From Escherichia phage vB_EcoM_phAPEC6: a stretch of DNA of 64,000 bases. This document shows, piece after piece, positions 18,467-51,301 of the stretch. How positions within the stretch are numbered: the first letter of the stretch is position 1; each line of letters starts with the position of its first letter. The translations under genes and the position numbers were made by a program. The notes beneath the pieces were generated by a model that worked only from the letters and a program-made list of their open reading frames with translations, had not been told where the DNA came from and ran no database searches. The stretch is taken from sequence record MK817115.1. One strand, given 5' to 3'.

Positions 18467-18467
18467 T

Positions 18468-37415: not shown

Positions 37416-37476
37416 GCGGGAGAACTATTCCCCCGCTCTATGTAAAACATTATACATTACTGGTTAGTACTGTCAA
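37416..37476 (-). promoter_or_regulatory. early-type promoter + 5' GC hairpin cassette (PeSL-like)
   Basis: TTGACA-N16-TATAAT then hairpin GCGGGAGAACTATTCCCCCGC. Confidence 0.55.
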
Positions 37477-37483
37477 ATAGTTT

Positions 37484-37741
37484 TTATGAAATATCTTCGA
37501 TGTAGTCGGCCCATTTCATTTTTTCAGTACTGTCAATGGCTACCGGATTATTTGGATCAAACCATTCACCATTACCGCAGTACATACCAACGGCTACGGT
37601 TTTATAGCCATCCTGGGCCGTACTCCACGACATTGCACGATAGATATGGCCTTTAACTGGTTGCAGTACTGGTAATGTTTTATGGTCTTCTACGTAGGCC
37701 ATAGCTTGAGGATTTACCCGATATTGTGTGAACTGTTCCAT
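37484..37741 (-). CDS. hypothetical protein (85 aa)
   Basis: ORF track; SD AAGGGGA; promoter TTGACA-N17-TGTAAT upstream. Confidence 0.6.
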   Translation of the reverse strand: MEQFTQYRVNPQAMAYVEDHKTLPVLQPVKGHIYRAMSWSTAQDGYKTVAVGMYCGNGEWFDPNNPVAIDSTEKMKWADYIEDIS

Positions 37742-37817
37742 TATGTTTCCCCTTGTAGTTAGTAAAGTTATTACATCAGTACTATCAAGCTATGTCAATA
37801 GTACTGAAATAAAACTT

Positions 37818-38042
37818 TTAGATTAGATTATTGATGCCTGAAATGGTAGACTCACTTTCTTCTTTCTCCCATTGGCGGTAGTACTTCCACGCTTCATGAT
37901 AGGTGGCGATCAGTTCATCTTTTTGATCCTGAGTACATGCCAGTACTGAATCACTGTAAGCGGTGTTATAGATAGAATCGAATGATTTCTTCTCTTCTGC
38001 CAGGTTAGCTACTTCCCGCATCAGTTCATCAAAGTTAGCCAT
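37818..38042 (-). CDS. hypothetical protein (~74 aa)
   Basis: ORF track 37818..38087; start moved to MANFDEL Met downstream of hairpin. Confidence 0.55.
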   Translation of the reverse strand: MANFDELMREVANLAEEKKSFDSIYNTAYSDSVLACTQDQKDELIATYHEAWKYYRQWEKEESESTISGINNLI

Positions 38043-38061
38043 TTTAGTACTCCTTATTAGT

Positions 38062-38120
38062 GGGGGAGGATATCTCCCCCTATGCAAAACATTATACTTT
38101 GTTTTAGTTATTATGCAAGT
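38062..38120 (-). promoter_or_regulatory. early-type promoter + 5' GC hairpin cassette (PeSL-like)
   Basis: TTGCAT-N16-TATAAT then perfect hairpin GGGGGAG-gatat-CTCCCCC. Confidence 0.55.
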
Positions 38121-38374
38121 ACTTTTTTCATATAAACATTAAATTCTACACCGCCGTAACCTTCTACGATGATATGTTTTGCGTTATCACGTTTGCACAT
38201 AGTGAAACCGTTGTTGATGTGTTCTGCATTTTCCAGGGCGACATCACCGATAGCGGCACATACGGCACTAATAACAGTATTCCGCAAAGTACTGGTATCA
38301 TTAGCGGTCATAGTAGTTTGCAGTACTACGTTGTCGTATACGTGTGCATTGATAGTGATTTCGATAGTGTTCAT
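38111..38374 (-). CDS. hypothetical protein (87 aa)
   Basis: ORF track; SD AGGAG. Confidence 0.6.
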   Translation of the reverse strand: MNTIEITINAHVYDNVVLQTTMTANDTSTLRNTVISAVCAAIGDVALENAEHINNGFTMCKRDNAKHIIVEGYGGVEFNVYMKKVLA

Positions 38375-38391
38375 GGTGTATCTCCTGCACA

Positions 38392-38455
38392 GTCGGGAGA
38401 ACTATTCCCCCGCTCTATGTAAAACATTATACGTTAATCTAACTACAATGCAAGT
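38392..38455 (-). promoter_or_regulatory. early-type promoter + 5' GC hairpin cassette (PeSL-like)
   Basis: TTGCAT..TATAAT then hairpin GAGCGGG..CCCGCTC. Confidence 0.55.
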
Positions 38456-38460
38456 ACTTT

Positions 38461-38652
38461 TTAAATTTTATTTCCGATATAGTCCGGTCTATTCTTTTCG
38501 GTCATACGCTTTGCTAATGTTTGCATATGGCTTATTGCGTTTAATGTGTCTTCCTCCAGGGATGAATCAACATAATCAGGATCATTCTTCACCTTGCAAT
38601 GATTATGATAGCGTAGTACTGCCAGTACTTTTTTAACTTCTTCTACTGTCAT
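38461..38652 (-). CDS. hypothetical protein (63 aa)
   Basis: ORF track; start overlaps stop of upstream gene. Confidence 0.55.
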   Translation of the reverse strand: MTVEEVKKVLAVLRYHNHCKVKNDPDYVDSSLEEDTLNAISHMQTLAKRMTEKNRPDYIGNKI

Positions 38653-38921
38653 AATAAGTACCCCACTTCGTTAGCTTTCAGGTTAGTATCAATCATCAGT
38701 GGATTTTTGTAGTTCACAAAACGATTAGTTTTCTCGATAGCGAATCCCATATAATCCAGCTTACTAACAGTACATTCATTCTTAAAAACTTCTTTCGCTG
38801 CATTGATGGCTGATTCAATTGATAACCGACCATCTAAGTTAATGTTTCCAAATGATCCACCAGCAGAAGTAGGATTACCGTTCATATCTTTAATGATCAT
38901 AGTAGCGGAGTAGCTAGACAT
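38649..38921 (-). CDS. hypothetical protein (90 aa)
   Basis: ORF track; SD AAGGAA. Confidence 0.6.
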   Translation of the reverse strand: MSSYSATMIIKDMNGNPTSAGGSFGNINLDGRLSIESAINAAKEVFKNECTVSKLDYMGFAIEKTNRFVNYKNPLMIDTNLKANEVGYLL

Positions 38922-38943
38922 AATTTTGTTTCCTTTTAGTATC

Positions 38944-39002
38944 GGGGAGAACTATTCTCCCCTTGATGTAAACTATTATACAGTACTAAGATACTTTGTC
39001 AA
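38944..39002 (-). promoter_or_regulatory. early-type promoter + 5' GC hairpin cassette (PeSL-like)
   Basis: TTGACA-N16-TATAAT then hairpin GGGGAGAA-cta-TTCTCCCC. Confidence 0.55.
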
Positions 39003-39005
39003 TAC

Positions 39006-39227
39006 TTAATTACGTTTAAAATGATATGTGCCTTTATCATCCTGTACGCCCCATACTGATTTACCATCAACACCAGTGAAACCGGATTGTAATTCAATAT
39101 GGAAACCATTATTATCAACTACAAAAACTTTTTTATTTTCATCCCGATAACATTGATATTCTGAATCAACATTAAAGGCCGCATCATTCAGAAGATTGGA
39201 AGCGTAAATGCAAGTCATTGTAGTCAT
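39006..39227 (-). CDS. hypothetical protein (~73 aa)
   Basis: ORF track 39006..39302; start moved to MTTMTCIYAS Met behind SD AAGGAA. Confidence 0.55.
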   Translation of the reverse strand: MTTMTCIYASNLLNDAAFNVDSEYQCYRDENKKVFVVDNNGFHIELQSGFTGVDGKSVWGVQDDKGTYHFKRN

Positions 39228-39247
39228 GATTTTATTCCTTATTGCCA

Positions 39248-39308
39248 GGGAGAACCATTTCCCCCTCTCGATATAAAACATTATACTTGATTCTAAGTAC
39301 AATGCAAG
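39248..39308 (-). promoter_or_regulatory. early-type promoter + 5' GC hairpin cassette (PeSL-like)
   Basis: TTGCAT-N16-TATAAT then hairpin GGGAGAACCATTTCCCCC. Confidence 0.55.
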
Positions 39309-39422
39309 TACTTTTTATCAAATACTTTAAAATAGTTTTCAGTACTGAATACTTATATAATAGATACACTTATGCACCCTGTGGGTCAGTGAGTTATCTC
39401 TCAATGAATATATATTAGCAAA

Positions 39423-39450
39423 GGGACTGACCGGAGTCAATCCCTTTTTT
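39423..39450. terminator. intrinsic terminator hairpin (conserved repeat-element copy 2)
   Basis: GGGACTGAC-cgga-GTCAATCCC + TTTTTT on plus; lies just downstream of kinase-like gene stop on minus. Confidence 0.45.
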
Positions 39451-39458
39451 AATCTTTT

Positions 39459-40043
39459 TTATCGTGTTATAGTTACGGCTTTTACATCACGCTTTTTATA
39501 GTACTGATTCCAGATATTGCGGGTTAAACCGTAATCAAGTACTTTAATAAGTCCATTACGATCCTGGCCGATATTCTGTTTTCTGATATCTCTTATCGTT
39601 AGTGTTGATAATGTATCATCGACGTGTTGTAGTGCATCAGCAAAGCGGTGCTGGCGTTCAATGGCATTACGTTTAATATTGTACTTTAATTCGTTGCACG
39701 CGTTAACGTGCTTCACACTGCCTTTACTTGCAGTACTCAACCGATCCATAACGATAAACATATTATCAGGATCGCATAAATGCATATGCACCTTTGCAAA
39801 GTACTGTTTCAATTGAGGGCGGTCATAGTCTAAAAAATTCCATACCTTACATTCAGTTTCATTTTGTTCTACACCCGCATCACAATTGGCGACCTTAATC
39901 ACTAACCGATCATTTAAAGCGAATACGATACGGGAAGAACCCGCCCCGATGATCTCCAGGCCAGCTAACCGACAAGCTGAAAGGATCTCTTTGTTGGTTT
40001 CCATTTCTGACAGTGTACGGATGAATTTAGTATAATTACGCAT
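39459..40043 (-). CDS. putative Ser/Thr protein kinase-like protein
   Basis: ORF track 39459..40100, start moved to Met behind SD AAGGAG; Gly-rich loop IGAGSSRIVF, VIKV lysine, catalytic-loop-like RDIRKQNIG, DYG (DFG-like) motif. Confidence 0.5.
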   Translation of the reverse strand: MRNYTKFIRTLSEMETNKEILSACRLAGLEIIGAGSSRIVFALNDRLVIKVANCDAGVEQNETECKVWNFLDYDRPQLKQYFAKVHMHLCDPDNMFIVMDRLSTASKGSVKHVNACNELKYNIKRNAIERQHRFADALQHVDDTLSTLTIRDIRKQNIGQDRNGLIKVLDYGLTRNIWNQYYKKRDVKAVTITR

Positions 40044-40074
40044 TGCATGTTCTCCTTGAGTTAATGAAACTATC

Positions 40075-40317
40075 TTACAGTACTTTACTATCAATGGCAA
40101 CCACTTTTTTCACACTAACCGCGTGAATCACTTCCTTAGTGTTTTTAGTACTGAATACTTTCGCTGTTCCTTGTTCTACTGCAATGCGATAACGACCGTT
40201 AACATCAACCATATTAATAAAGTCCGGTGTACTAAACCGAGTAGTACGGCATTTCAGTACTGTTAACAATTCCACCAGCGATGTAGTTTCTTTGATACGT
40301 TTTTCTAAAGTAATCAT
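40075..40317 (-). CDS. hypothetical protein (80 aa)
   Basis: ORF track; promoter TTGACA-N17-TACTAT upstream. Confidence 0.6.
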   Translation of the reverse strand: MITLEKRIKETTSLVELLTVLKCRTTRFSTPDFINMVDVNGRYRIAVEQGTAKVFSTKNTKEVIHAVSVKKVVAIDSKVL

Positions 40318-40375
40318 TTTGTTTTCCCCCGTGTTGGTATGTACATATAGTACTAAAACATTTGAGTACTGTCAA

Positions 40376-40594
40376 TTAGATAATAGAATATTTCTTTAGT
40401 GATAATGCGTCTTCTGTCGGTTGATATTCTACACCGTTCCCGTTATCAACCTTAGTGAGTAAACCTTTATCAATGAGTTTTTTGATGGTACGGTTTCCCT
40501 GTTGAAAACTGGTGAAGTGTGAATCATTACGAAAGGTATAACCGTGCTTCACTGCTTCATCAATAGTTTTCTTTTCGATTTTAGATAATTTCAT
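40376..40594 (-). CDS. hypothetical protein (~72 aa)
   Basis: ORF track 40376..40654; start moved to MKLSKIEK Met because promoter TTGACA-N17-TATTAT overlaps the track N-terminus. Confidence 0.55.
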   Translation of the reverse strand: MKLSKIEKKTIDEAVKHGYTFRNDSHFTSFQQGNRTIKKLIDKGLLTKVDNGNGVEYQPTEDALSLKKYSII

Positions 40595-40650
40595 TTTGTT
40601 TCTCTCTCTGTGTTGGTATAGATACATAATACTAAAACAATTGAGTACTG

Positions 40651-40905
40651 TCAACGTGATATTAGTTTTATTTTTTTATTGTATTGTTGGTGTTCATATA
40701 GATTAATTTTTCCAGTACTCTCAATTACTATTCTATTGTTAGTGTCTACATCGATAACACGTAGTTTCCCGTTGCTTAACTTCCTGGGTAATAGACTACC
40801 ATTAATAAACTCATTAGCAAGCTGTACGGCCTTTGTGATGATTCTCTGTGGTGCTTTATAGTGTACCCGCAAGATATTATCTTTAGATAGTTGTACCTTC
40901 ATCAT
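40651..40905 (-). CDS. hypothetical protein (84 aa)
   Basis: ORF track; SD AGGAT. Confidence 0.6.
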   Translation of the reverse strand: MMKVQLSKDNILRVHYKAPQRIITKAVQLANEFINGSLLPRKLSNGKLRVIDVDTNNRIVIESTGKINLYEHQQYNKKIKLISR

Positions 40906-40920
40906 TTTAGTTTATCCTAT

Positions 40921-40946
40921 AAAAAAAGGCGGGAACTGAACCCGCC
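40921..40946 (-). terminator. intrinsic terminator
   Basis: hairpin GGCGGG-aactgaa-CCCGCC with T-run on minus side (A7 on plus) directly after stop of 40970..41365. Confidence 0.5.
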
Positions 40947-40969
40947 GTGTTGTTAGTACTGCAAAGTTA

Positions 40970-41365
40970 TTAGATAACCTGGCGGCGTTTACTGTATACT
41001 GTTACACGGTTTCCTTTACGGTCATGACGGATCTCTTTCTGGTTACGAATCAGTTCACTTGGACGCTTAAGGTTTGCCAGGTGATCCGCGTGAGTCCATG
41101 CATTTGCGTTAACTGTAACTTCAATATCAGAACCTTTCAAAAAGTCATCTTGAGCGTTCAGTACTTCAGCCAGTTCTTGAGCTTGCTTTAGTTCTGCTTC
41201 AGTAAGTACAGGCTCAGGTGAATTCACAATATCAGAGATCTCTTTGAACTGTACCGCCCAGCGTTGTCCTTTCGGTGCATCTTTGCCCATGTCTTTAAAT
41301 GTTTCACCTTCTTCACGAGCAACGATGCGAGCTTGTTCACGGGTAGCGAAGAATTTAGTAATCAT
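40970..41365 (-). CDS. hypothetical protein; paralog of 52987..53253
   Basis: ORF track; shares FATREQAR..TFKDMG..RKGNRVTVY with 52987..53253. Confidence 0.6.
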   Translation of the reverse strand: MITKFFATREQARIVAREEGETFKDMGKDAPKGQRWAVQFKEISDIVNSPEPVLTEAELKQAQELAEVLNAQDDFLKGSDIEVTVNANAWTHADHLANLKRPSELIRNQKEIRHDRKGNRVTVYSKRRQVI

Positions 41366-41464
41366 GGTGTACATCCTATTAGTTAAGTTAATTAGTACTA
41401 CAAGTTAGAGTCTATTATAAAGTACTATCTGGGCAATGTCAAATAGTACTTTAAATGGATTCTA

Positions 41465-41788
41465 TTACATGTCTTTTTTACGTTTTACATCGTAGTAACG
41501 AACTGTAATTTCTTTGTTGATCTCATCCTCAATTCTGTGTAGTACTTTCTCTTTCGGGTTGAAACCTATTACAGTTTCTTTAATGATCTCCAAGCCCGTG
41601 TATTCGCCTTGTGTACCGTAACCGTAAGTAAAGGTTTCATGTCCCAGGTCTTCCCAGCGGTCACCAATCAATGCAGACACGTAGCATGAGTGGTAAGTAT
41701 TGCCGTGGCTATCAGTCCACCGATTAACTTTAATGTCAAAGGAAGTTACAATTTTCATTTCTACTTTCTGGGCAAGGATCATAGTCAT
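41465..41788 (-). CDS. hypothetical protein; paralog of 47657..48001
   Basis: ORF track 107 aa; shared GNTY.S, YGYG, DVKRKKD with 47657..48001. Confidence 0.6.
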   Translation of the reverse strand: MTMILAQKVEMKIVTSFDIKVNRWTDSHGNTYHSCYVSALIGDRWEDLGHETFTYGYGTQGEYTGLEIIKETVIGFNPKEKVLHRIEDEINKEITVRYYDVKRKKDM

Positions 41789-41875
41789 TTTAATTTCTCT
41801 CTTTTTGTTAGGAAGGGAACCATTCCCCTCACTTGATGTAAACTATTATACAGTACTAAGATACTTTGTCAATAC

Positions 41876-42151
41876 TTAAGTATTGTAAATGTCGTGAATA
41901 GTGATAAAGTTTTTACGACCGTAAACATGTAAATCAGTATCAATGTAGTGCTTATCAAGTACATCCTCGACGCTTAAAGCCGTGTCGTGAATATCTTCAT
42001 AGAATTGTGGATCTACAATCTTACTTAAATCATCCGGCGTTAACTTATCATTGAGCCATTGCACCGCCTGGATATCTGCATCACGTTTCCAGTCTTCCAG
42101 GTTAGTAGTCAGTACTTGCTCGATTTCGTTAGCTGTCAGTAGAATCCGCAT
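41876..42151 (-). CDS. hypothetical protein (91 aa)
   Basis: ORF track; promoter + hairpin GTGGGGAActatTCCCCAC upstream. Confidence 0.6.
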   Translation of the reverse strand: MRILLTANEIEQVLTTNLEDWKRDADIQAVQWLNDKLTPDDLSKIVDPQFYEDIHDTALSVEDVLDKHYIDTDLHVYGRKNFITIHDIYNT

Positions 42152-42240
42152 TTTAATTTCTCTCTTTGTTAGGTGGGGAACTATTCCCCACTTGATGTAA
42201 AATATTATACAGTACTAAAAACTATTGTCAAACTATTTTA

Positions 42241-42441
42241 TCAAATTGTTTCCCATTTCATGTTACCCGCTTTACGCTGTGAAACAGGAATAAACATGTT
42301 ATTAATGTTACTAATATAACCGACCTGTAAGTCACGCTGTGAACCATACGCCCGACTTGCTGCATTTTTAGCACCGCGTTCTGATTTATAAACGCCGCTG
42401 GATACTGTAAAGCCTACTACACCGAAAGTAAAATGTTTCAT
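42241..42441 (-). CDS. hypothetical protein (66 aa)
   Basis: ORF track; SD AGAGGA; preceded by tandem promoters and structured leader. Confidence 0.6.
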   Translation of the reverse strand: MKHFTFGVVGFTVSSGVYKSERGAKNAASRAYGSQRDLQVGYISNINNMFIPVSQRKAGNMKWETI

Positions 42442-42507
42442 TTTGTATTCCTCTTTGTGGTTGATGTAAGTATTATACTCGTTTAATTTCTATTGTCAAA
42501 CTATTTT

Positions 42508-42581
42508 ATCAGGGGAGGTTTTCGTATGTCTTACTCCTGGACTACTTAACGGGGTTACTTATTTCGTTCCCCGTCCTGATG
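42508..42581 (-). ncRNA. conserved structured 5' leader element, copy 1
   Basis: ~75 nt between two sigma70-like promoters; closing stem ATCAGG/CCTGAT with two internal hairpins; near-identical copy at 52314-52389, diverged copy near 49351-49421. Confidence 0.35.
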
Positions 42582-42726
42582 TAAAACATTATACTTGATT
42601 CTAAGTACAATGCAAGTACTTTTTAAAAATAGTTTTCAGTACTTGATAGTACTAGCCACCAGCATATAATAGATACATTTATGCACCCTGTGGGTTAGAT
42701 TGTTTCTATGCATATATAATAGCAAA

Positions 42727-42754
42727 GGGACTGACCGGAGTCAATCCCTTTTTT
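42727..42754. terminator. intrinsic terminator hairpin (conserved repeat-element copy 3)
   Basis: GGGACTGAC-cgga-GTCAATCCC + TTTTTT. Confidence 0.45.
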
Positions 42755-42762
42755 AAATCTTT

Positions 42763-42912
42763 TTAAACTTGTTTTGGGTTGCGATATGTGATAGCGTTCG
42801 GGTACATTTGTTTAATGTTATTCCATGCCTGGTTAACATTGTAACCACTTGATCGAATCAGTTGGTTACTTCCTACGCCCTGAAACACTACTTCGAATAA
42901 GAATTCTTTCAT
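42763..42912 (-). CDS. small protein (49 aa), hypothetical
   Basis: own reading: MKEFLFEVVFQGVGSNQLIRSSGYNV...; ATGA overlap with upstream ORF; below track cutoff. Confidence 0.35.
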   Translation of the reverse strand: MKEFLFEVVFQGVGSNQLIRSSGYNVNQAWNNIKQMYPNAITYRNPKQV

Positions 42913-43079
42913 GCTGCAATCCCCTCTGATTTACCTTTACGCCAGGCGTTAGCCAGTTCATTACGTTGCCATACATCCAATGCAATGTATAGTTTAGCAG
43001 TATCCCCTTTAGGGTATTCGCCAGTAGTGCCTAACCGATAAAACAGATCTTTCAGTACTGATAATTCTACTTGGATCAT
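42909..43079 (-). CDS. small protein (56 aa), hypothetical
   Basis: own reading: MIQVELSVLKDLFYRLGTTGEYPKGD...; ATGA overlaps both neighbours. Confidence 0.35.
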   Translation of the reverse strand: MIQVELSVLKDLFYRLGTTGEYPKGDTAKLYIALDVWQRNELANAWRKGKSEGIAA

Positions 43080-43168
43080 TGTATTACTCCTGATTGTGTT
43101 AGTACTTCTACGATGGCATGAATGATCATAAGTACAGCTAACACAACAATCATCGGATTCATTTGCAT
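43076..43168 (-). CDS. hydrophobic micro-protein (30 aa), putative membrane peptide
   Basis: own reading: MQMNPMIVVLAVLMIIHAIVEVLTQSGVIQ; SD GAAGGAG 8 nt upstream. Confidence 0.35.
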   Translation of the reverse strand: MQMNPMIVVLAVLMIIHAIVEVLTQSGVIQ

Positions 43169-43185
43169 AAGCTGTACTCCTTCTA

Positions 43186-43398
43186 TTAATCTTTCAGCCA
43201 ATGATCTTGAATGAATTTTTCACAGAATCCCTGTTTCATAGATTCTAACAGGCGTTCACGGTGAGCGGCGGCATATTGCTCAGTACTATGCGTTACGCCA
43301 GGTTGATAACGTGAAACACCGTCCGGTCCGATATATTGAACATCCCACGGTTTTTCGTTAGTATCAGACCATTTACGAACGATTAGTTGACCTTGCAT
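43186..43398 (-). CDS. hypothetical protein (70 aa)
   Basis: ORF track; SD AGAGGAA. Confidence 0.6.
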   Translation of the reverse strand: MQGQLIVRKWSDTNEKPWDVQYIGPDGVSRYQPGVTHSTEQYAAAHRERLLESMKQGFCEKFIQDHWLKD

Positions 43399-43415
43399 GT
43401 TTCTTTCCTCTTAGT

Positions 43416-43476
43416 GGGGAGAATCATTTCTCCCCTTCATGTAAACTATTATACAGTACTATAATCTATTGTCCAG
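43416..43476 (-). promoter_or_regulatory. early-type promoter + 5' GC hairpin cassette (PeSL-like)
   Basis: TGGACA-N16-TATAAT then hairpin GGGGAGAA-tcat-TTCTCCCC. Confidence 0.55.
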
Positions 43477-43483
43477 TACTTTT

Positions 43484-43672
43484 TTACAGTTTATGAATCA
43501 ATTCTTTATCTAAGCGATAGCGTACATTATTAATGGTAACAGCATTATTTTTAATGCTACGCTGTACTGGCCCACCAGCAATAACAAACGTTGCTTTATT
43601 ACCCCGAACAATGATAGCACTACCAGGATTGCCAAAATCATCTTGTACTAAAATACTTGATAAGTTTTCCAT
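43484..43672 (-). CDS. hypothetical protein (~62 aa)
   Basis: ORF track 43484..43678; start moved 2 codons to Met behind SD AGAGGAA. Confidence 0.55.
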   Translation of the reverse strand: MENLSSILVQDDFGNPGSAIIVRGNKATFVIAGGPVQRSIKNNAVTINNVRYRLDKELIHKL

Positions 43673-43750
43673 TTTCATTTCCTCTTAGTAGGGGAAGACG
43701 TTTCCCCTTGATGTAAGTACTATAACAGTACTGGAAACTAAATGCAAGTA

Positions 43751-44107
43751 CTACGATAAAATCATGATAGGATATTCACTATCGATCAGTACTTCAAATC
43801 CAAAACTTTCATACCATTCTTTAAGATTAAAGGCGTTATCTTCTCCCGTATCGCATTCTAAAATGATACAATCTGAATCATCGGCGGCATCAATAAAGGC
43901 GTTCATCAATTCCGTACCTTCACCATTACCCCGACTAGCAGGATCAACATAAAGAGAATCAATAAACGCTACACGGTCATAATCAAGATCCGGTGCAATG
44001 ATTCCACGTTTAACAAACCAGTACTGCAATTGTGCTACTTTGCCCTGTACTTGATAGCCAGTGATCTCGCCATTGTCAGTAGTACGCGTGGTATGTTGTA
44101 TTCCCAT
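43751..44107 (-). CDS. GNAT-family N-acetyltransferase-like protein
   Basis: ORF track 118 aa; acetyl-CoA-binding-like RGNGEGTELM and C-terminal WYESFGFE resembling GNAT motifs A/B. Confidence 0.45.
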   Translation of the reverse strand: MGIQHTTRTTDNGEITGYQVQGKVAQLQYWFVKRGIIAPDLDYDRVAFIDSLYVDPASRGNGEGTELMNAFIDAADDSDCIILECDTGEDNAFNLKEWYESFGFEVLIDSEYPIMILS

Positions 44108-44170
44108 GATTTCTATCCTCAGTTAAGATATAAAATATTATACACTATCTTTCAGTACTGTCAATACTTT

Positions 44171-44428
44171 TTATCTCATAGATCTATGCCAACAATTACG
44201 CGGATCTCTTTTAAAAGTACTATCATGATCCTCCTGGCAAGTTATGCAATACTTACATCCCTTAACAGCCTGGCGGCGATTCTCAGGGATTTTATCGCCA
44301 CAGTCGAGGCAATGTATCAGTGATTCTATTTGTGCGTTAATTTGCTTTCTAGCGTGGTTTACGGCGGCCTGAATCACTGCGTTAATCTCGTCTTGCTCGG
44401 CCCCGTCTTTCGCGAATCCTACAGCCAT
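44171..44428 (-). CDS. TraR/DksA-type C4 zinc-finger protein
   Basis: ORF track 85 aa; CLDCGDKIPENRRQAVKGCKYCITCQ (CxxC-N17-CxxC, as in TraR/DksA family). Confidence 0.45.
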   Translation of the reverse strand: MAVGFAKDGAEQDEINAVIQAAVNHARKQINAQIESLIHCLDCGDKIPENRRQAVKGCKYCITCQEDHDSTFKRDPRNCWHRSMR

Positions 44429-44625
44429 TATTTTAACTTTTTTCTGTCATTGATTAATGCTTTCAGTACTATACTAATGATTTGCAATGATTCATCAATA
44501 ACTATAAAATTATTTTCTTTCATTAGATGATAGTTACCATTGATATTATATTCTAACGAGTACTGTTTACGTTTAATTTTTGATAATGTTTCTATTTGTT
44601 TTTGTACTGATTTCATGCTAATCAT
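44428..44625 (-). CDS. hypothetical protein (65 aa)
   Basis: ORF track; translationally coupled to downstream gene (TAATG). Confidence 0.55.
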   Translation of the reverse strand: MISMKSVQKQIETLSKIKRKQYSLEYNINGNYHLMKENNFIVIDESLQIISIVLKALINDRKKLK

Positions 44626-44730
44626 TGTTAAACGTCCTGTAACGCATTCTAACGAGATAAACGGTTTAGTACTGGCATTGTATAGGGTAATGGATTAAAG
44701 CCCACCAGCGTTAACCAGTGGGCTATAATC

Positions 44731-44874
44731 TTACATCTTGCGGATAATCTTAACAGTATCTTTCACCGATTTACCGTTTTGCTGACATTGTTCGATCATC
44801 GCGTATTGTTCTGCGGTCAGATCCTCGCCAGTTTTTGCCAGTACTGCATCGATGAATGAATCTAGTGCGATCAT
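44731..44874 (-). CDS. small protein (47 aa), hypothetical
   Basis: own reading: MIALDSFIDAVLAKTGEDLTAEQYAMIEQCQQNGK...; own promoter TTGACA-N16-TATAAT upstream. Confidence 0.35.
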   Translation of the reverse strand: MIALDSFIDAVLAKTGEDLTAEQYAMIEQCQQNGKSVKDTVKIIRKM

Positions 44875-44973
44875 TTTGTTTCTCTCTTAGGTTAAGTTAA
44901 CTACTGTTTATAAAACTTATTATACAGTACTATCAAACTATGTCAATATCTTTAATAGTACTGGTAATATATT

Positions 44974-45153
44974 TTAGCGGTAGTCGTCGTATGCTTTATT
45001 CACCTGGCGAATGTAACTTTCAAAGGCTTCGTCTACCGTTTCATACTCCCGAACATAATCACCATAGGAAACTACATACATCCCTTTTTGATCTTCAAAC
45101 GTCATGATGATAGAATCCAGGCCGATGATTTCAGTTTTTGCGATGATAGCCAT
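44974..45153 (-). CDS. small protein (59 aa), hypothetical
   Basis: own reading: MAIIAKTEIIGLDSIIMTFEDQKGMYVV...; SD AGGAA; own promoter TTGACA-N16-TATAAT. Confidence 0.4.
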   Translation of the reverse strand: MAIIAKTEIIGLDSIIMTFEDQKGMYVVSYGDYVREYETVDEAFESYIRQVNKAYDDYR

Positions 45154-45234
45154 TTTTAATTCCTTAGTAGTGTAGTTGATAAAACTTATTATACAGTACT
45201 ATCAAACTATGTCAATAGTACTGTGATAATATTT

Positions 45235-45447
45235 TTAGTTAATGATAGTCAGTGTAAAATTGTAATCCCCTGCCTGGTATAGTACTTTGTCGCCGAACGT
45301 ACCAACACGTTTCATATTGCAATAGATACCCATAACACTTTTTACATCTTTGATATTCCGAACGCCTGTGATATCCTTGTTGAAATTTTCATGATCAGAA
45401 AATAAAACTTGTTTTGCATTTTTCAGTACAGTGCAGATATTAGCCAT
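45235..45447 (-). CDS. hypothetical protein (70 aa)
   Basis: ORF track; SD AGAGAA. Confidence 0.6.
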   Translation of the reverse strand: MANICTVLKNAKQVLFSDHENFNKDITGVRNIKDVKSVMGIYCNMKRVGTFGDKVLYQAGDYNFTLTIIN

Positions 45448-45467
45448 TTTGATTTCTCTTTGTTAGT

Positions 45468-45527
45468 GGGGAGAACTATTCTCCCCTTGATGTAACTTAT
45501 TATACAGTACTATAATCTATTGTCAAA
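45468..45527 (-). promoter_or_regulatory. early-type promoter + 5' GC hairpin cassette (PeSL-like)
   Basis: TTGACA-N16-TATAAT then hairpin GGGGAGAA-cta-TTCTCCCC. Confidence 0.55.
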
Positions 45528-45540
45528 CTATTTTTTAATA

Positions 45541-45882
45541 TTATTCAAAATCTTCTGGACCGGACTGATAATCATCTTCACCGTATGCACTTTCTAACTT
45601 CTCGCCAGTGTGATCATCAGTTAGTGAGTCATCCTCATAGTTCACGTCTACGCCCGTGATGTAAAACTGGCTATCGTCTGGATCATTGAAATTAATTTTC
45701 TGAATGTTTACAATAACGGTATTGATGCCCAGGACACCGCCATCAGCAGTTACAAAGTACTGATAGTTTTCACAACCGCCTGTATTGAAACCGTAATTAA
45801 TTTCGGCCCGACCATCATTTAAACGCAGTGCCTGGGCGATGATTTCGTTTTCAAAGTTAGATTGAGCAATTGAGATAGTCAT
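45541..45882 (-). CDS. hypothetical protein (~113 aa)
   Basis: ORF track 45541..45945; start moved to MTISIAQS Met downstream of hairpin. Confidence 0.55.
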   Translation of the reverse strand: MTISIAQSNFENEIIAQALRLNDGRAEINYGFNTGGCENYQYFVTADGGVLGINTVIVNIQKINFNDPDDSQFYITGVDVNYEDDSLTDDHTGEKLESAYGEDDYQSGPEDFE

Positions 45883-46065
45883 GATTCGTTTCCTTATTAC
45901 CAGGGGAAACCGTTTCCCCTCTCGATGTAAAACATTATACGCCAATTGAGATAGTTTGCAAGTACTTTTTAAAAATAGTTTTCAGTACTCAATACTTATA
46001 TAATAGATACACTTATGCACCCGGTGGGCTAGTGAGCTATCTCTCAATGAATATATAATAGCAAA

Positions 46066-46094
46066 ATGGCTGACCGAAGTCAACCACTTTTTTC
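46066..46094. terminator. intrinsic terminator hairpin (conserved repeat-element copy 4, diverged)
   Basis: TGGCTGAC-cgaa-GTCAACCA + TTTTTT. Confidence 0.4.
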
Positions 46095-46096
46095 AT

Positions 46097-46231
46097 TTAT
46101 TTTTTAGCTTTCAGTACTGCCGCCTTTCGCGTCATGCCTTGCTTAATGTACTCCTTTACTTTCGCTTTACGTGCTTTCGCTTTATCTGCTTTCGTTTTAG
46201 GAGTACTGTAAATTAAACCGTTAGGATTCAT
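46097..46231 (-). CDS. small basic protein (44 aa), hypothetical
   Basis: own reading: MNPNGLIYSTPKTKADKAKARKAKVKEY... Confidence 0.3.
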   Translation of the reverse strand: MNPNGLIYSTPKTKADKAKARKAKVKEYIKQGMTRKAAVLKAKK

Positions 46232-46321
46232 TTAAATCACCATAAAGAATAGATAGGTTACTAACAATGCCGCGATCAATGCACCGATCACCGCTGAACT
46301 GTAATAAGCTAATGATTTCAT
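46232..46321 (-). CDS. hydrophobic micro-protein (29 aa), putative membrane peptide
   Basis: own reading: MKSLAYYSSAVIGALIAALLVTYLFFMVI; ATGA overlap with upstream gene stop. Confidence 0.3.
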   Translation of the reverse strand: MKSLAYYSSAVIGALIAALLVTYLFFMVI

Positions 46322-46500
46322 TTTTTAGCCTGGAAGTAATGTTTAATTTGTGCGGCGGTCAGTGCACAATTACGCAGGAAGTTTTCTGTATAACTGCGGC
46401 GAGTACTGAAAGAGAATTGACCTTTGCCGTTACCGATAGTAACATCAAACCGAGCGTTGTATTGTTTCATTTTGTTTCTCCTGTTATTGGGGAGAATCAT
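46318..46500 (-). CDS. hypothetical protein (60 aa)
   Basis: ORF track; SD AGGAG. Confidence 0.6.
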   Translation of the reverse strand: MILPNNRRNKMKQYNARFDVTIGNGKGQFSFSTRRSYTENFLRNCALTAAQIKHYFQAKK

Positions 46501-46549
46501 TTCTCCCCTTCATGTAAAACATTATACAGTACTAAAAACTAATTGCAAG
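46489..46549 (-). promoter_or_regulatory. early-type promoter + 5' GC hairpin cassette (PeSL-like)
   Basis: TTGCAA-N16-TATAAT then hairpin GGGGAGAA-tcat-TTCTCCCC. Confidence 0.55.
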
Positions 46550-46551
46550 TA

Positions 46552-46698
46552 CTATTTTTTAGATTTACGCAAACTTTCTACCATCTCAGGAGTAAGGCCA
46601 GGCGGGTAGGAAACCACTTCATCAACGAAACGTAAAGGGAATACCCCAGCGAAAGGTGAACATGCTTTCTTAGTATTACTCTTTTTTGATGCTTTCAT
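46552..46698 (-). CDS. small protein (48 aa), hypothetical
   Basis: own reading: MKASKKSNTKKACSPFAGVFPLRFVDEV...; preceded by promoter + hairpin GGAGAGAAtcatTTCTCCCC. Confidence 0.35.
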   Translation of the reverse strand: MKASKKSNTKKACSPFAGVFPLRFVDEVVSYPPGLTPEMVESLRKSKK

Positions 46699-46767
46699 TT
46701 CATATTCCTTAATTAGTGGAGAGAATCATTTCTCCCCTTCATGTAAAACATTATACGCGTTTAAAAA

Positions 46768-46977
46768 CTAATTGCAAGTATTATTTGAAAGTAAATGCTC
46801 ATACGCTGCATTAACTACGTTTTCAATAACCGACTGTACAGAAAGATCCCCCACGTCCTGGCTATAGTAGAAATCGCTTACAGTACTATCATCGTATGCA
46901 AATACTTTACCAGGATCTGCATCAATCACATACATATTAACCTTTAAGATGTCGATCTTATCCTGTACAGTAAGCAT
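46768..46977 (-). CDS. hypothetical protein (69 aa)
   Basis: ORF track. Confidence 0.55.
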   Translation of the reverse strand: MLTVQDKIDILKVNMYVIDADPGKVFAYDDSTVSDFYYSQDVGDLSVQSVIENVVNAAYEHLLSNNTCN

Positions 46978-46982
46978 ATTAA

Positions 46983-47255
46983 TTAACCTTTTAAGTACTG
47001 GCTTAAGTAGTCTTGTTGATCTTCGGTGATTGCAGCCATCTTCCCTAGTACTGGATTGATGATATAATCCCCTGTAACGTCCTGTAACGCATTCTCAGGC
47101 GGTTTAACGGCTGGGGTAGCCATAGCCATTGCCTGGACTTGTTCGACGCTGTAACGCTCATAAAGGCGGCATTCTTCCGGTGTTAACATAGCATCAGTAC
47201 GCTTCATCGGTTTAATGATGCTTTCGATCTCATTCAGTACTTGATTAACGTTCAT
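46983..47255 (-). CDS. hypothetical protein (90 aa)
   Basis: ORF track. Confidence 0.6.
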   Translation of the reverse strand: MNVNQVLNEIESIIKPMKRTDAMLTPEECRLYERYSVEQVQAMAMATPAVKPPENALQDVTGDYIINPVLGKMAAITEDQQDYLSQYLKG

Positions 47256-47306
47256 GGTATAATCCCCAATATAAGCGGCCTAAATCGACCGCTAACGATG
47301 TTTTGA

Positions 47307-47576
47307 TTAATAGGTGTATGGTTGACGCTCAAACAATGAATAGACGTTATACGCCCCGCTTATGGGCTTCGCTGGTAAATCAATTTTATATTGTTCACGC
47401 TTAAAGATAATAAAACGGCAATTGTTTTTAACATCAAAATTGATTGAACGTTCCAGGAGTTTACCATCGTGCACAAATACAAGATAACCGCTCGCTACTT
47501 GTTTTGTAGTACTGGTTGCAACCATAGACCGCCGAACATGTGTACCTGCATCAATTAAAGTACTGATATTTTTCAT
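47307..47576 (-). CDS. hypothetical protein (89 aa)
   Basis: ORF track. Confidence 0.6.
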   Translation of the reverse strand: MKNISTLIDAGTHVRRSMVATSTTKQVASGYLVFVHDGKLLERSINFDVKNNCRFIIFKREQYKIDLPAKPISGAYNVYSLFERQPYTY

Positions 47577-47656
47577 TATACTATCTTCTTAAGTTAATTT
47601 AATTTCTTTCCCCTATGCAGACACTATATCAAAGTATCTGCATAAAGTAAAGCTAA

Positions 47657-48001
47657 TTAAAGATCTTTTTTGCGTTTAACATCAGTTACCGAACTGTAAA
47701 CAGTGATATTATTGTCACGGCAAAAACGGGAAAGATAAGAACCGCGTAAAAACTCTTTATCTTCCATATTAATAACCTTGCTAAATTCTTCCATTGCTAC
47801 AGTGTCAAAGTGATCCCCGTATCCATATTGGAACGGCACGTTTACTACTTCAATAAAATTACCATCAATTTCTACGTCTACACTTAAAGAGAAATAAGTG
47901 TTACCATATGAAGCCTGGAACCAACGCCGAGCGGCAATATGTACAACTTCAACAGAAGACAGGTTGATATTTTGTTTTGCGATAGTGTTGATATTAGCCA
48001 T
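47657..48001 (-). CDS. hypothetical protein; paralog of 41465..41788
   Basis: ORF track 114 aa; shared GNTY, YGYG, DVKRKKD motifs. Confidence 0.6.
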   Translation of the reverse strand: MANINTIAKQNINLSSVEVVHIAARRWFQASYGNTYFSLSVDVEIDGNFIEVVNVPFQYGYGDHFDTVAMEEFSKVINMEDKEFLRGSYLSRFCRDNNITVYSSVTDVKRKKDL

Positions 48002-48082
48002 TTTAATTTCCTCTTAGTTGTCTTGATAAAATCTATTATGCCAGTACTATCAAACTATGTCAATAGTACTGTGATAATATTT

Positions 48083-48226
48083 TTACTTACTTTTTGCTTT
48101 CTTTGCTGCTTCCACCTGGTCGGCCCATTCTTTACCCCATACTTGTAAATTATAATGGTACTGGCAAAGTGCAACGCCCCGCTTTAAACCAGTAATAGAT
48201 TTTTTACCACATTGACAAGTTTTCAT
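48083..48226 (-). CDS. small Cys-containing protein (47 aa), hypothetical
   Basis: own reading: MKTCQCGKKSITGLKRGVALCQYHYNLQ...; preceded by promoter + hairpin. Confidence 0.35.
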   Translation of the reverse strand: MKTCQCGKKSITGLKRGVALCQYHYNLQVWGKEWADQVEAAKKAKSK

Positions 48227-48312
48227 ATTAGTTTCCTCATTATCAGGGAGAACCATTTCTCCCCTTGATGTAATGTATTATACTTTATCTGATTTACTTT
48301 GCAAGTACTTTT

Positions 48313-48540
48313 TTAATTTAATTCATCCAGGCAAAGGATACGCTCAACGCCCAAATCAGTTAAACTAATCGACGGCACTTGATAGGTTTCAATGTATGCT
48401 ACACTTGCCCACTGACCGAACTCATTAACGGCCCATTTATCCATTGCAAAATGCAATTCCGCACCTTTCTTATTAGTAATTACAGCAACAGTAGAAGAAT
48501 TGCCAGTAGTACCAGTTACGCGAGTGATTACGATAGCCAT
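48313..48540 (-). CDS. hypothetical protein (~75 aa)
   Basis: ORF track 48313..48597; start moved to MAIVITRV Met downstream of hairpin. Confidence 0.55.
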   Translation of the reverse strand: MAIVITRVTGTTGNSSTVAVITNKKGAELHFAMDKWAVNEFGQWASVAYIETYQVPSISLTDLGVERILCLDELN

Positions 48541-48775
48541 TGTTTTAATTCCTTTGATTTGGAAGGAGAACCGTTTCCCCCTCTCGATGTAAAACATTAT
48601 ACGCTAATCTCTTAATCGTGCAAGTACTTTTTATTACTTTTTGCAAAATACTTTAAACGCACTCAATCGCGTTCTTACAGCCTTAACGCCACCAGCTAGG
48701 GCAATGCATCAGATAATCAGTTTAATGCGTTAGAATCGATTCTAGGCGGTGCTGGTGGCCTGGTAAACGTTAAAC

Positions 48776-48803
48776 ACAAAAAAGCCCACTTATGCAGTGG
48801 GCT
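48776..48803 (-). terminator. intrinsic terminator
   Basis: hairpin AGCCCACT-tatgc-AGTGGGCT followed by T-run on minus (A-run on plus) after stop of 48825..49307. Confidence 0.5.
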
Positions 48804-48824
48804 AGTGATTCAGTACTTTAATTG

Positions 48825-49307
48825 TTATGCTTCCACTTTGCGATGAGCTTCGATCCATTCCTCGCGAGTCATACCGCTGGAGTTAATCGCATCCAGTACT
48901 ACCGCAATGCAGTTACCACGCACCGGAATCAGATATTCTTCCCCGTTGTCCAGTACTACCGCTACACGTTTTTGAATCCATTTTTTAGGCTTAGATTCCG
49001 GCTTATCTTCCCCATACTTAACCGCCAGGGCTTTTTGTGCCATCTCTGTAACTACTTCCAGATCCAATCCAACTACTGCCGCCTGAATACTTTCAATTGT
49101 TGCTTGTAGTTCTGCTTCACGGGCCGCCTTTGCCGCTTCAATTTCTGCCGCTTTATTTGCTTGTAGTTCTTTCGCAGTACTATAAGCGATGTTAAAATTA
49201 TTGCGTACCGCTTTCATGGTATCGTTATCCAGATCAGCCAGGATCTCTGCCGCGACGTTAGTTTCATTTGCTACCAGTGCTTTGATGAATGATTTTACAT
49301 TAGCCAT
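48825..49307 (-). CDS. hypothetical protein (~160 aa), Ala/Glu-rich central helix
   Basis: ORF track 48825..49322; start moved to MANVKSF Met behind SD GAGGAT. Confidence 0.6.
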   Translation of the reverse strand: MANVKSFIKALVANETNVAAEILADLDNDTMKAVRNNFNIAYSTAKELQANKAAEIEAAKAAREAELQATIESIQAAVVGLDLEVVTEMAQKALAVKYGEDKPESKPKKWIQKRVAVVLDNGEEYLIPVRGNCIAVVLDAINSSGMTREEWIEAHRKVEA

Positions 49308-49350
49308 TTTATAAATCCTCAATTAAAGTTTAGTTTACGTTGGTTAGTGT

Positions 49351-49421
49351 ATCAAAGTTTTCTCGACGTGTCCAGTTTTTCGTTCGACTTACTGGCGGTC
49401 TACTTAGTGCTCCCCGTCTTG
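49351..49421 (-). ncRNA. structured 5' leader element, diverged copy 3
   Basis: partial sequence similarity to leaders at 42508-42581 and 52314-52389; sits between promoter TTGACA-N16-TAGAAT and gene start. Confidence 0.25.
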
Positions 49422-49510
49422 ATGTAATATATTCTACGCCTTTTTGCGGTAATGTCAACTATTTTTTAAAACTATTTTCAAAGTATCTCAGTACTACGAT
49501 ACTACAAAAA

Positions 49511-49534
49511 CAAAAAAAGCCCACCAGGTGGGCT
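49511..49534 (-). terminator. intrinsic terminator
   Basis: perfect hairpin GCCCACC-a-GGTGGGC with T-run on minus side (A7 on plus) after stop of 49541..49771. Confidence 0.5.
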
Positions 49535-49540
49535 ATGTAC

Positions 49541-49771
49541 TTAATCAGTAATTAAAACATTAAACACTTTATCATTTAACGTTATGGGTGTACTGCTACC
49601 AGGCTTGAGATCAGTTAGTACACCTGCAATAGCTTTTTCATTGGCGACCTTTCCAGTGTCCAACAGTACTACAGTACTGATAAGATTAACGCTCGTTTCA
49701 ATATCATAATGCACGGCGTTAAGTAGTTGTGTAGTACTGCTTTCGTTAAGTAAAACAATTCGCTTAGTCAT
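49541..49771 (-). CDS. hypothetical protein (76 aa)
   Basis: ORF track. Confidence 0.6.
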   Translation of the reverse strand: MTKRIVLLNESSTTQLLNAVHYDIETSVNLISTVVLLDTGKVANEKAIAGVLTDLKPGSSTPITLNDKVFNVLITD

Positions 49772-49792
49772 GATGTTACCCCGTAGTATCTA

Positions 49793-50092
49793 TCAACGGC
49801 AATTAATAACGCCAGTATGAGTTACTTTCTCAGTATCCATAACAGTGACCGAACCGCGTTTAGTACTTGCATCGTAATAAATTGTCGTGCTACCGTTTTC
49901 GTCTTCTTCATGGAACGGGCCGTTTTTAAATGCTTCCGGCTGGATCTCTAAATCCTTTAAAACAATCTCGCCAGTACTTTCATCGGTCATTGCAACAGTG
50001 CACTGAATGAATTTTTCACTACTTACATCTAATGACGCATTAACAGCGAAAGAGGAAACAGATAAAGCCAGGGCGATGATTGCAATTTTCAT
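49793..50092 (-). CDS. small secreted/exported protein (N-terminal signal peptide)
   Basis: ORF track 99 aa; N-term MKIAIIALALSVSSFAVNA has signal-peptide features; SD AGGAT. Confidence 0.5.
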   Translation of the reverse strand: MKIAIIALALSVSSFAVNASLDVSSEKFIQCTVAMTDESTGEIVLKDLEIQPEAFKNGPFHEEDENGSTTIYYDASTKRGSVTVMDTEKVTHTGVINCR

Positions 50093-50112
50093 TTGATTAT
50101 CCTTAGTTACCA

Positions 50113-50173
50113 GGGGGAACCGCTCCCCCCTTGCGATGTAAAATATTATACAGTACTAAAAACTAATTGCAAG
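50113..50173 (-). promoter_or_regulatory. early-type promoter + 5' GC hairpin cassette (PeSL-like)
   Basis: TTGCAA-N16-TATAAT then hairpin GGGGGAA-ccg-CTCCCCC. Confidence 0.55.
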
Positions 50174-50177
50174 TACT

Positions 50178-50414
50178 TTATGATTTTTTATAAAACATTT
50201 CGGCAGTGATATTTTTACCCGTTGGTTGTACTTTATCCAGAATTTTTTGATGTCCAGGGCGACCAAATGAATAAGATCCGTAAACCGTAAACCAGTAGTT
50301 ACCCTCAGTGTTTACATGTACAGCACAATAGGGAACGCCCCGCGATTCATCACTAGTAAAGTGTGATACCGTACCCGTTACATTCGCAGACGTTGATTTG
50401 ATTTGTTCGACCAT
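50178..50414 (-). CDS. hypothetical protein (78 aa)
   Basis: ORF track; SD AGGAA. Confidence 0.6.
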   Translation of the reverse strand: MVEQIKSTSANVTGTVSHFTSDESRGVPYCAVHVNTEGNYWFTVYGSYSFGRPGHQKILDKVQPTGKNITAEMFYKKS

Positions 50415-50522
50415 TTTCTTATTCCTTAGTTACCAGGGGAACCGCTCCCCCTATGCAAAACATTATACGCGTTTAAAAACTAATAGCAAGTATTTTAATA
50501 AAAAGTATTTGGAAAATAATTG

Positions 50523-50551
50523 TTGACAAGTGCATCCAGTACTGGCATAAT
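50523..50551 (+). promoter_or_regulatory. plus-strand sigma70-like promoter (antisense orientation)
   Basis: TTGACA-N17-CATAAT on plus strand; no plus ORF downstream. Confidence 0.4.
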
Positions 50552-50621
50552 TACTACATCAAGACGAAACAGTCACTAACCCACCGGGTGCCGAGATCCG
50601 TCTATTAAATGATTCAGTACT

Positions 50622-50650
50622 AAAAAAAGAAAGGGGATCAATTGATCCCC
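50622..50650 (-). terminator. intrinsic terminator
   Basis: perfect palindrome GGGGATCAATTGATCCCC with T-run on minus side, directly after stop of 50657..50878. Confidence 0.55.
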
Positions 50651-50656
50651 TCGTTG

Positions 50657-50878
50657 TTATTTTGTAAGGTATAAACAGAAGTCACCTTTATTTGCTACGC
50701 CGCCAGTGTAACGCGAGGAATAGTTAGAAACGTCCTGGACTTCTGCTATTACCAGGGTATCATCATTCAATTCGTCGCAGAAGCAAACGGCTGGATCTTG
50801 TACGCCGATATTGTCGGCATGTTCCCGCATAGATTTAACCAGTGCTTCAAGTTGGGAAAGAGTAGTGATATTAGCCAT
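50657..50878 (-). CDS. hypothetical protein (~73 aa)
   Basis: ORF track 50657..50908; start moved to MANITTLS Met downstream of hairpin. Confidence 0.55.
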   Translation of the reverse strand: MANITTLSQLEALVKSMREHADNIGVQDPAVCFCDELNDDTLVIAEVQDVSNYSSRYTGGVANKGDFCLYLTK

Positions 50879-50961
50879 TTTATTTTCCTCATTACCAGGG
50901 AGAACCATTTCTCCCCTTGATGTAAACTATTATACAGTACTAAAAACTAATTGCAAGTACT

Positions 50962-51243: not shown

Positions 51244-51301
51244 TAGATAAACCCTCAATAAAGGCGGGAACCATTCCCCGCCATTGTTACAGTACTGAAT
51301 A

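Follow-up and report, generated by a model that had tools for sequence, protein, structure and literature searches.

[quoted passage not shown] At its N-terminal tip TraR carries a DxxDxA motif, whose aspartates are required for function though not for binding. Residues P43, P45, E46, R48, R49 and K50 contact the rim helices and β′Si3, and the C-terminal helix touches β lobe-Si1 (PMC9239242, PMC6970531). The S2 residue of TraR sits 4.3 Å from the catalytic Mg2+. All five phage TraR homologs that were tested bound RNAP and inhibited rRNA promoters, and not every C4 zinc-finger member of the family acts like DksA (PMC9239242). At high expression, YbiI of E. coli is reported to rescue the auxotrophy of a ΔdksA strain, as data not shown there (PMC2613031). 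We found no published RNAP-binding data for members of the YbiI-like subgroup, and our literature search returned no paper tying an Asteriusvirus to DksA or TraR.

We analyzed a stretch of 64,000 nucleotides (the window) from Escherichia phage vB_EcoM_phAPEC6 (MK817115.1), which is DNA of an Asteriusvirus (121Q/PBECO4-like) jumbo coliphage. Positions 44171..44428 of the minus strand hold a TraR/DksA-family (YbiI-like) zinc-ribbon gene, with an ATG start and 85 codons plus stop in the ORF listing. Its 85-aa product, MAVGFAKDGAEQDEINAVIQAAVNHARKQINAQIESLIHCLDCGDKIPENRRQAVKGCKYCITCQEDHDSTFKRDPRNCWHRSMR, has the zinc ligands C40, C43, C61 and C64, and 17 residues separate C43 from C61. The preliminary description of this DNA had read the string CLDCGDKIPENRRQAVKGCKYCITCQ, which is residues 40–65 of the protein, as the CxxC-N17-CxxC zinc ribbon of the family. 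That reading holds: the spacing equals that of C37/C40/C58/C61 in F-plasmid TraR, the sequence of which we checked against PDB 5W1S, and the four cysteines are unvarying in 57/57 homologs (alignment A1). Alignments and hhalign place the C4 zinc ribbon, including I47-P48-E49-x-R51-R52, at codons 40–64 (44237..44311, minus strand). The protein has two further cysteines. C58 lies three residues ahead of the third ligand, where λ Orf73 also has an additional Cys, and varies, with Val in many homologs; C79 does not vary across the clade.

Profile searches matched the protein to the family well beyond this motif. Pfam PF01258 (zf-dskA_traR) matched residues 39–68 on profile positions 5–34 of 36, with 45 bits against a gathering cut-off of 24.9 (E=1.1e-11), and PHROG 54 ("DksA-like zinc-finger protein") matched residues 12–77 (E=3.8e-19). 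The best PDB sequence match was E. coli YbiI (2KGO, E=2.7e-12, residues 1–69), followed by the RNAP-bound TraR entries 5W1S and 6N57 at about 8e-6. With PF01258, PHROG 54 and 2KGO all matching far above chance, the assignment to the TraR/DksA family made in the preliminary description is borne out. We also compared the clade profile (alignment A1, 57 homologs) with an alignment of verified homologs: TraR, λ Orf73, P2 Orf82, VP882 Orf61 and four plasmid TraR variants. This set was built by hand from the λ, P2 and VP882 loci because a TraR homolog search gave only close plasmid variants. hhalign joined the two alignments with a probability of 99.4% (E=2.8e-21, 63 columns), laying residues 12–74 on TraR 9–71 without a gap, and the similarity extends far past the four cysteines.

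The predicted structure agrees. An AlphaFold2 model built from A1 has moderate confidence (mean pLDDT 70.9), with predicted helices at residues 5–29, 49–54 (short) and 62–72 around the zinc ribbon and a low-confidence tail. In a Foldseek search of the PDB, YbiI (2KGO) ranked first, then RNAP-bound TraR (6N57_M and 5W1S_M; probability 1.00). Below TraR came Chlamydia Dks, E. coli DksA and P. aeruginosa DksA2, with non-significant E-values of 0.16–0.8. Membership of the phage protein in the TraR/DksA family is thus solid. A PADLOC scan of the gene and five neighbours gave no defence-system match.

Within the family, the protein resembles E. coli DksA (7KHI, 5VSW) in its Pfam zinc-finger domain and its secondary-channel-binder fold class. 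However, DksA has 151 aa, a two-helix coiled coil and ppGpp-binding residues, whereas a single N-terminal helix is predicted here; the NCBIfam DksA model scored 16 bits (E=0.0099) against a cut-off of 105 bits. With TraR, λ Orf73, P2 Orf82 and VP882 Orf61 the protein has in common an N-terminal helix, a C4 zinc globular domain and a C-terminal helix, as well as being the product of a mobile-element gene of a proteobacterial host. It differs from this group in that identity is only about 26–36%, a strict DxxDxA is missing, 2–3 extra residues stand at the N-terminus, and its carrier is neither a plasmid nor a temperate phage but a jumbo phage that is strictly lytic. Closest in both sequence and fold is YbiI, a protein of the same length class (88 aa, versus 85 here). 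The two share the N-terminal MA-x-G-[FW]-A-x-D-x-A, the zinc ribbon, I-P-x-x-R-R and a basic tail ending in R. They differ at position 11 (Val in YbiI, Glu here), in the tail (YNRRGSKDSQLR versus RNCWHRSMR) and in context: ybiI is chromosomal and σS dependent, while the phage gene has σ70 consensus promoters.

We then compared the residues through which TraR acts on RNAP. TraR I44, P45, E46, R48 and R49 correspond to I47, P48, E49, R51 and R52 of the phAPEC6 protein, so the P45/E46/R48/R49 equivalents are kept along with the identical cysteine spacing. In alignment A1, no variation is seen at I47, R51 and R52, and conservation reaches at least 90% at P48 and E49. The predicted helix 62–72 aligns with TraR 59–69 but is shorter, and is followed by a 13-residue tail missing from TraR. 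In this helix Q65 and D69, the counterparts of TraR Q62 and E66, are invariant; residue-level contacts (E66, D3, D6 and others) were not found in the eLife TraR paper.

The N-terminal tip is different. Codons 1–12 (44393..44428, minus strand) encode MAVGFAKDGAEQ in place of the TraR DxxDxA tip, as seen in the alignments and in representative sequences. A strict DxxDxA is absent throughout residues 1–20, the nearest pattern being D8-x-x-E11. hhalign did not align the MAVGFAKDGAEQ region with the TraR tip, and two registers can be drawn. In the +3 register (ungapped hhalign, MAFFT), TraR D3/D6/A8 fall on A6/G9/E11; in the +2 register they fall on F5/D8/A10. The +2 register is compatible with the predicted helix end (29, versus 27 in TraR) and with the tip-to-cysteine distances of 29–33 residues among relatives. 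The N-terminus also runs 2–3 residues past TraR S2 and, since S2 is already so close to the Mg2+, the extra residues would reach further.

This tip bears on what the protein would do once inside the channel. It might occupy the channel without acting like TraR, excluding DksA, GreA or GreB or obstructing the active site rather than mimicking DksA plus ppGpp. The first tip aspartate is missing along with the strict DxxDxA, the 2–3 extra residues (A-V-G) are present, and the tip aspartates of DksA, TraR and Orf73 serve function, not binding. In addition, MA-x-G-[FW]-A-K-D-G-A is better conserved than the remaining protein in phages and bacteria alike, and so may contact something highly conserved. 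Rnk is a precedent for a channel binder that only competes. We nevertheless hold this explanation to be unlikely: the reported rescue of a ΔdksA strain by YbiI suggests DksA-like activity over pure blockade, and P2 Orf82 and Gp34, which have imperfect motifs, still regulated transcription, if more weakly.

To which subgroup does the protein belong? The nearest NCBIfam model is the YbiI equivalog NF008243, which scored 82.2 bits, under its 96-bit cut-off, and matched residues 1–73 on profile positions 1–72 of 88, leaving the tail unmatched. The TraR subfamily model TIGR02419 (52.8 bits, cut-off 59.7) and the TraR equivalog NF010268 (31.4 bits, cut-off 108) also stayed under their thresholds. 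Two types of small members are seen in the alignments. The TraR-like type starts with M-x-D-x-x-D-x-A; the YbiI-like type starts with MA-x-G-[FW]-x-x-D-G-A-V-Q and ends with the invariant tail YNRRGSKDSQLR. We set the YbiI-like subgroup by its termini, namely MA-x-G-[FW]-x-x-D-G-A together with a basic tail ending in ...S-x-[LM]-R, and the phAPEC6 protein has both (N-terminus MAVGFAKDGA, tail RNCWHRSMR). Because of its non-canonical tip and N-terminal extension of 2–3 residues, we file it as YbiI-like; judged by its sequence, it is a member of the Pfam family and of the YbiI-like subgroup and not a TraR equivalog.

Both termini are strongly conserved. Throughout the phage clade MAVGFAKDGAEQ varies hardly or not at all (single substitutions in a few members), and its region is almost invariant in bacterial YbiI too, with the Glu at position 11 specific to the clade. 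At the other end, codons 73–85 (44174..44212, minus strand) encode the clade-specific C-terminal tail KRDPRNCWHRSMR, delimited by the alignments, by intermediate sequences and by low pLDDT; ...F-K-R-x-P-RNCWHRSMR is invariant in the clade. Tails intermediate between RNCWHRSMR and YNRRGSKDSQLR occur, namely HNRKVWHRSMR (P0134) and YNRKANYHTQLR (P0131), and the clade tail appears to be a form of the YbiI tail YNRRGSKDSQLR that arose by ordinary divergence. A frameshift between the two tails was also considered and rejected, since intermediates exist.

Such invariant termini, MAxG[FW] at one end and a basic ...SKDSQLR or ...WHRSMR tail at the other, are unlike TraR. They could mean that the target of the YbiI-like subgroup is something other than RNAP (nucleic acid, the ribosome and a metal-related partner are examples), with the zinc ribbon merely a shared scaffold, and some zinc-finger family members indeed do not behave like DksA. 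Yet the equivalents of TraR P45/E46/R48/R49 are the most conserved internal positions of this protein, the predicted fold best fits RNAP-bound TraR after YbiI, and YbiI is reported to rescue a ΔdksA strain. We consider a target other than RNAP improbable. A more speculative proposal covers the whole YbiI-like subgroup, its bacterial members as well as those of many T4-like and jumbo phages: these proteins could form a functionally distinct class of effectors, either channel binders that reach deeper and act unlike TraR and DksA or proteins with a different, highly conserved target, of which the clade with E11 and ...NCWHRSMR would be a specialised viral version. We regard this as doubtful.

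We prefer, with a probability of roughly 0.6, the reading that the gene encodes a small accessory TraR/DksA-family (YbiI-like) protein, made early from host σ70-type promoters, which would bind the RNAP secondary channel in the manner of TraR. In a mechanism modelled on homology to TraR, λ Orf73 and DksA, the N-terminal helix (residues 5–29) would enter the secondary channel toward the active site, and binding would alter the kinetics of initiation without contact to DNA. The output of rRNA and ribosomal-protein promoters would then fall, and polymerase would be freed for phage promoters. Our results establish the ORF, its family, its pattern of conservation, its predicted architecture and its promoter context; that the protein binds RNAP, is made early and alters transcription we infer, and the suggestion of the preliminary description that the phage may reprogramme host transcription has that same standing.

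The gene is an ordinary member of a known family and is already annotated in near-identical genomes. The surrounding 3 kb are 96% identical to phage SHEFM2K and 91–95% identical to many others. In SHEFM2K, 121Q, BF17, WPEC3/5 and others the gene already carries the labels "DksA-like zinc-finger protein", "C-4 type zinc finger protein" or "TraR/DksA C4-type zinc finger protein". The protein is 100% identical to that of one phage, ECO103 4-12-1, and 99–100% identical to proteins of other phages. At 63–76% identity, clade members are present in other jumbo phages as well as in T4-like ones (Dhakavirus JS10, Citrobacter phage Moon, Yersinia phages). The YbiI-type tail is carried by proteins of Klebsiella KP27, Erwinia Rivsvirus, Klebsiella Alcyoneusvirus and Acinetobacter T4-like phages. 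A relative of the protein is contained in 982 phage records. Among the 1.84 billion 50%-identity representatives searched, the clade amounted to 1 at E<1e-30, with 24 at E<1e-10 and 610 at E<1e-3.

The T4-like homologs lie in the tk-rI-nrdC region or beside the primase gene, downstream of σ70 promoters. Mosigvirus ST0 has a 55-aa chimeric ORF (L004 1414-1581), the last 28 residues of which, VIYCVGCQSMHDEIFKREPRNCWHRSMR, match the C-terminus of the T4-like clade protein exactly. Over its N-terminal half the ORF shows no relation and has no first CxxC, and it forms a separate PHROGs family, phrog_25948; from its sequence this ORF appears to be a recombination remnant. The zinc-finger gene is accessory and dispensable in some lineages, only a remnant being kept in ST0.

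The preliminary description had also proposed that the gene is translationally coupled to the small gene upstream of it through TAATG, and this is correct for the phAPEC6 window. The upstream 65-aa ORF (PHROG 36844; 44428..44625, minus strand) ends in a TAA that runs into the start codon of the zinc-finger gene. Read along the minus strand, the junction is ...AAG TTA AAA TAATG GCT, and the last A of the stop codon is the one base shared with the start. P2 orf82 is likewise translationally coupled to its upstream gene. A blastn comparison of the window with SHEFM2K revealed an indel at this point, which we followed through 33 related records. In 27 of these, ~332 extra bp separate the 65-aa ORF from the zinc-finger gene, whereas the other six (G17, Sharanji, ECO103 4-12-1, EC22.5-2, UE-S1 and ph0011) share the short TAATG form with phAPEC6 and fall into two sequence groups.

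The junction lies at 44428..44437 (minus strand), where ~332 bp are missing here and 9–10 bp of microhomology (GTTAAAATAA) are found. In SHEFM2K the repeat G/ATTAAAATAA stands at both ends of the segment (L001 7438-7769). The segment contains two strong promoter-like sites as well as ATTACA-16-TATAAT and a GAGG Shine-Dalgarno sequence 8 nt before the ATG. It also holds an annotated 30-aa ORF with a GTG start, which is doubtful as a gene. The reverse event, an insertion of the ~332 bp with target-site duplication, was judged less likely: the segment has phage-typical promoters and no mobility gene, and is present in 27/33 records including the type phages. It is more likely, as these alignments suggest, that a ~332-bp deletion produced the TAATG coupling and took away the promoter and ribosome-binding site that the gene had of its own.

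What drives the gene in phAPEC6? The nearest upstream perfect σ70 promoter is at 44919..44946 (minus strand, TTGACA-16-TATAAT), and the first gene past it is a 47-aa ORF (PHROG 34103; 44731..44874, minus strand). Directly 3′ of the stop of this ORF, an RNA hairpin is predicted at 44693..44730 (minus strand; −22.5 kcal/mol, z = −5.7). It has a GC-rich 11-bp stem followed only by UUU, without a proper U-tract. Standing inside the operon, ahead of the pair of the 65-aa ORF and the zinc-finger gene, it is a possible partial terminator, attenuator or RNA-stabilising element. Between this hairpin and the zinc-finger gene we detected neither a Shine-Dalgarno sequence nor a promoter-like site in phAPEC6. 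With its own promoter and Shine-Dalgarno sequence lost, the gene would depend on read-through and on termination-reinitiation: its transcript probably comes from the promoter at 44946..44919 and its translation from reinitiation at TAATG.

The same losses could instead mean that the accessory gene is poorly expressed or decaying in phAPEC6. The segment with ATTACA-16-TATAAT and the GAGG Shine-Dalgarno sequence of SHEFM2K is gone, no promoter-like site replaces it from the hairpin to the gene, the −22.5 kcal/mol hairpin lies upstream, and the gene has decayed in Mosigvirus ST0. We think this very unlikely, as the ORF is intact, its product is 99–100% identical to the proteins of other phages, and six sequenced phages, from two sequence groups, have retained the short arrangement. 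Moreover, TAATG permits translational coupling, and the hairpin has no proper U-tract.

The preferred reading, of an early protein acting on host RNAP, also draws on the surroundings of the gene. The local genes are all small and all on the minus strand. The window contains 11 perfect TTGACA-N16-TATAAT promoters against 0.07 expected by chance; all are on the coding (minus) strand, within 37449..55405 (for example 45188-45215 and 45499-45526). Most of the 11 have a conserved AGTACTG directly 5′ of TATAAT, and several are near-identical 28-mers; these AGTACTG-TATAAT promoters look like a phage-specific extended early-promoter consensus. One perfect promoter (44137..44164, minus strand, TTGACA-N16-TATAAT) begins 7 nt past the stop codon of the zinc-finger gene. 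By its position it would serve the downstream neighbour, a gene for a 118-aa GNAT acetyltransferase (43751..44107, minus strand; Pfam PF00583, E=3e-10; PHROG 1249), and mark the 3′ limit of the unit, so that the GNAT gene would lie outside the transcription unit of the zinc-finger gene. In Asteriusviruses the GNAT gene adjoins the zinc-finger gene, and in T4-like phages it does not.

Two near-identical terminator-like hairpins with 12-bp stems were also observed, at 42724-42751 and 46063-46090 (minus strand), with the sequence AAAG[GT]G[AG]TTGACT[CT]CGGTCAG...TTT. Each hairpin contains a TTGACT −35-like hexamer and is itself followed by GCTATTATAT, and each could act as a terminator and a promoter combined.

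For a related Asteriusvirus, a published genome study reports a sigma factor of the phage and proposes that it associates with the RNAP of the host; no polymerase encoded by the phage is described there (PMC11895373). With a sigma factor and without a polymerase of their own, Asteriusviruses would use the host enzyme throughout infection. Our literature search found no infection transcriptome for an Asteriusvirus. Expression of the zinc-finger gene early in infection, by the host σ70 holoenzyme, is a reasonable inference from the promoters. The gene had been placed among early genes in the preliminary description; the 11 consensus promoters and the location in the terminal repeat make that placement reasonable.

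In the related phage vB_Ec-M-J, the gene is at 12.3-12.6 kb, within an annotated direct terminal repeat of 21.5 kb and about 11-12 kb from the genome end. This repeat maps collinearly to ~35.7-55.8 kb of the window, with 88-96% identity, and the physical left end of vB_Ec-M-J aligns with window position 55,770. Longer linear related records carry the terminal-repeat region twice. The window, as this mapping suggests, probably runs across a terminus of the genome that assembly closed up. By analogy with other terminally redundant phages, the terminal-repeat region that bears the gene may enter the cell first.

Outside the repeat, the window holds several families of paralogs. At 29,600-35,630 on the minus strand, about 25 small ORFs (66-104 aa, with 28-57% identity between pairs) are paralogs arranged in tandem. 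This array has many stop/start overlaps and sits just within the boundary that corresponds to the terminal repeat. Further minus-strand paralog families are found in 15,570-20,590, with proteins of 147-163 aa at 16638..18959 and of 118-125 aa at 18969..20587, and at 56.0-60.0 kb (56,000-60,030), with proteins of 60-87 aa. Three plus-strand paralogs of 388, 402 and 380 aa lie at 60,341-63,937.

As genome annotation, these results add nothing beyond existing database statements. What interest remains attaches to the YbiI-like subgroup, which is uncharacterised and combines invariant termini with a tip that is non-canonical. If the proposed function is true, a lytic jumbo phage would carry its own DksA/ppGpp-independent modulator of host RNAP, and virulent jumbo and T4-like phages would join the plasmids and temperate phages for which TraR-type reprogramming has been shown.
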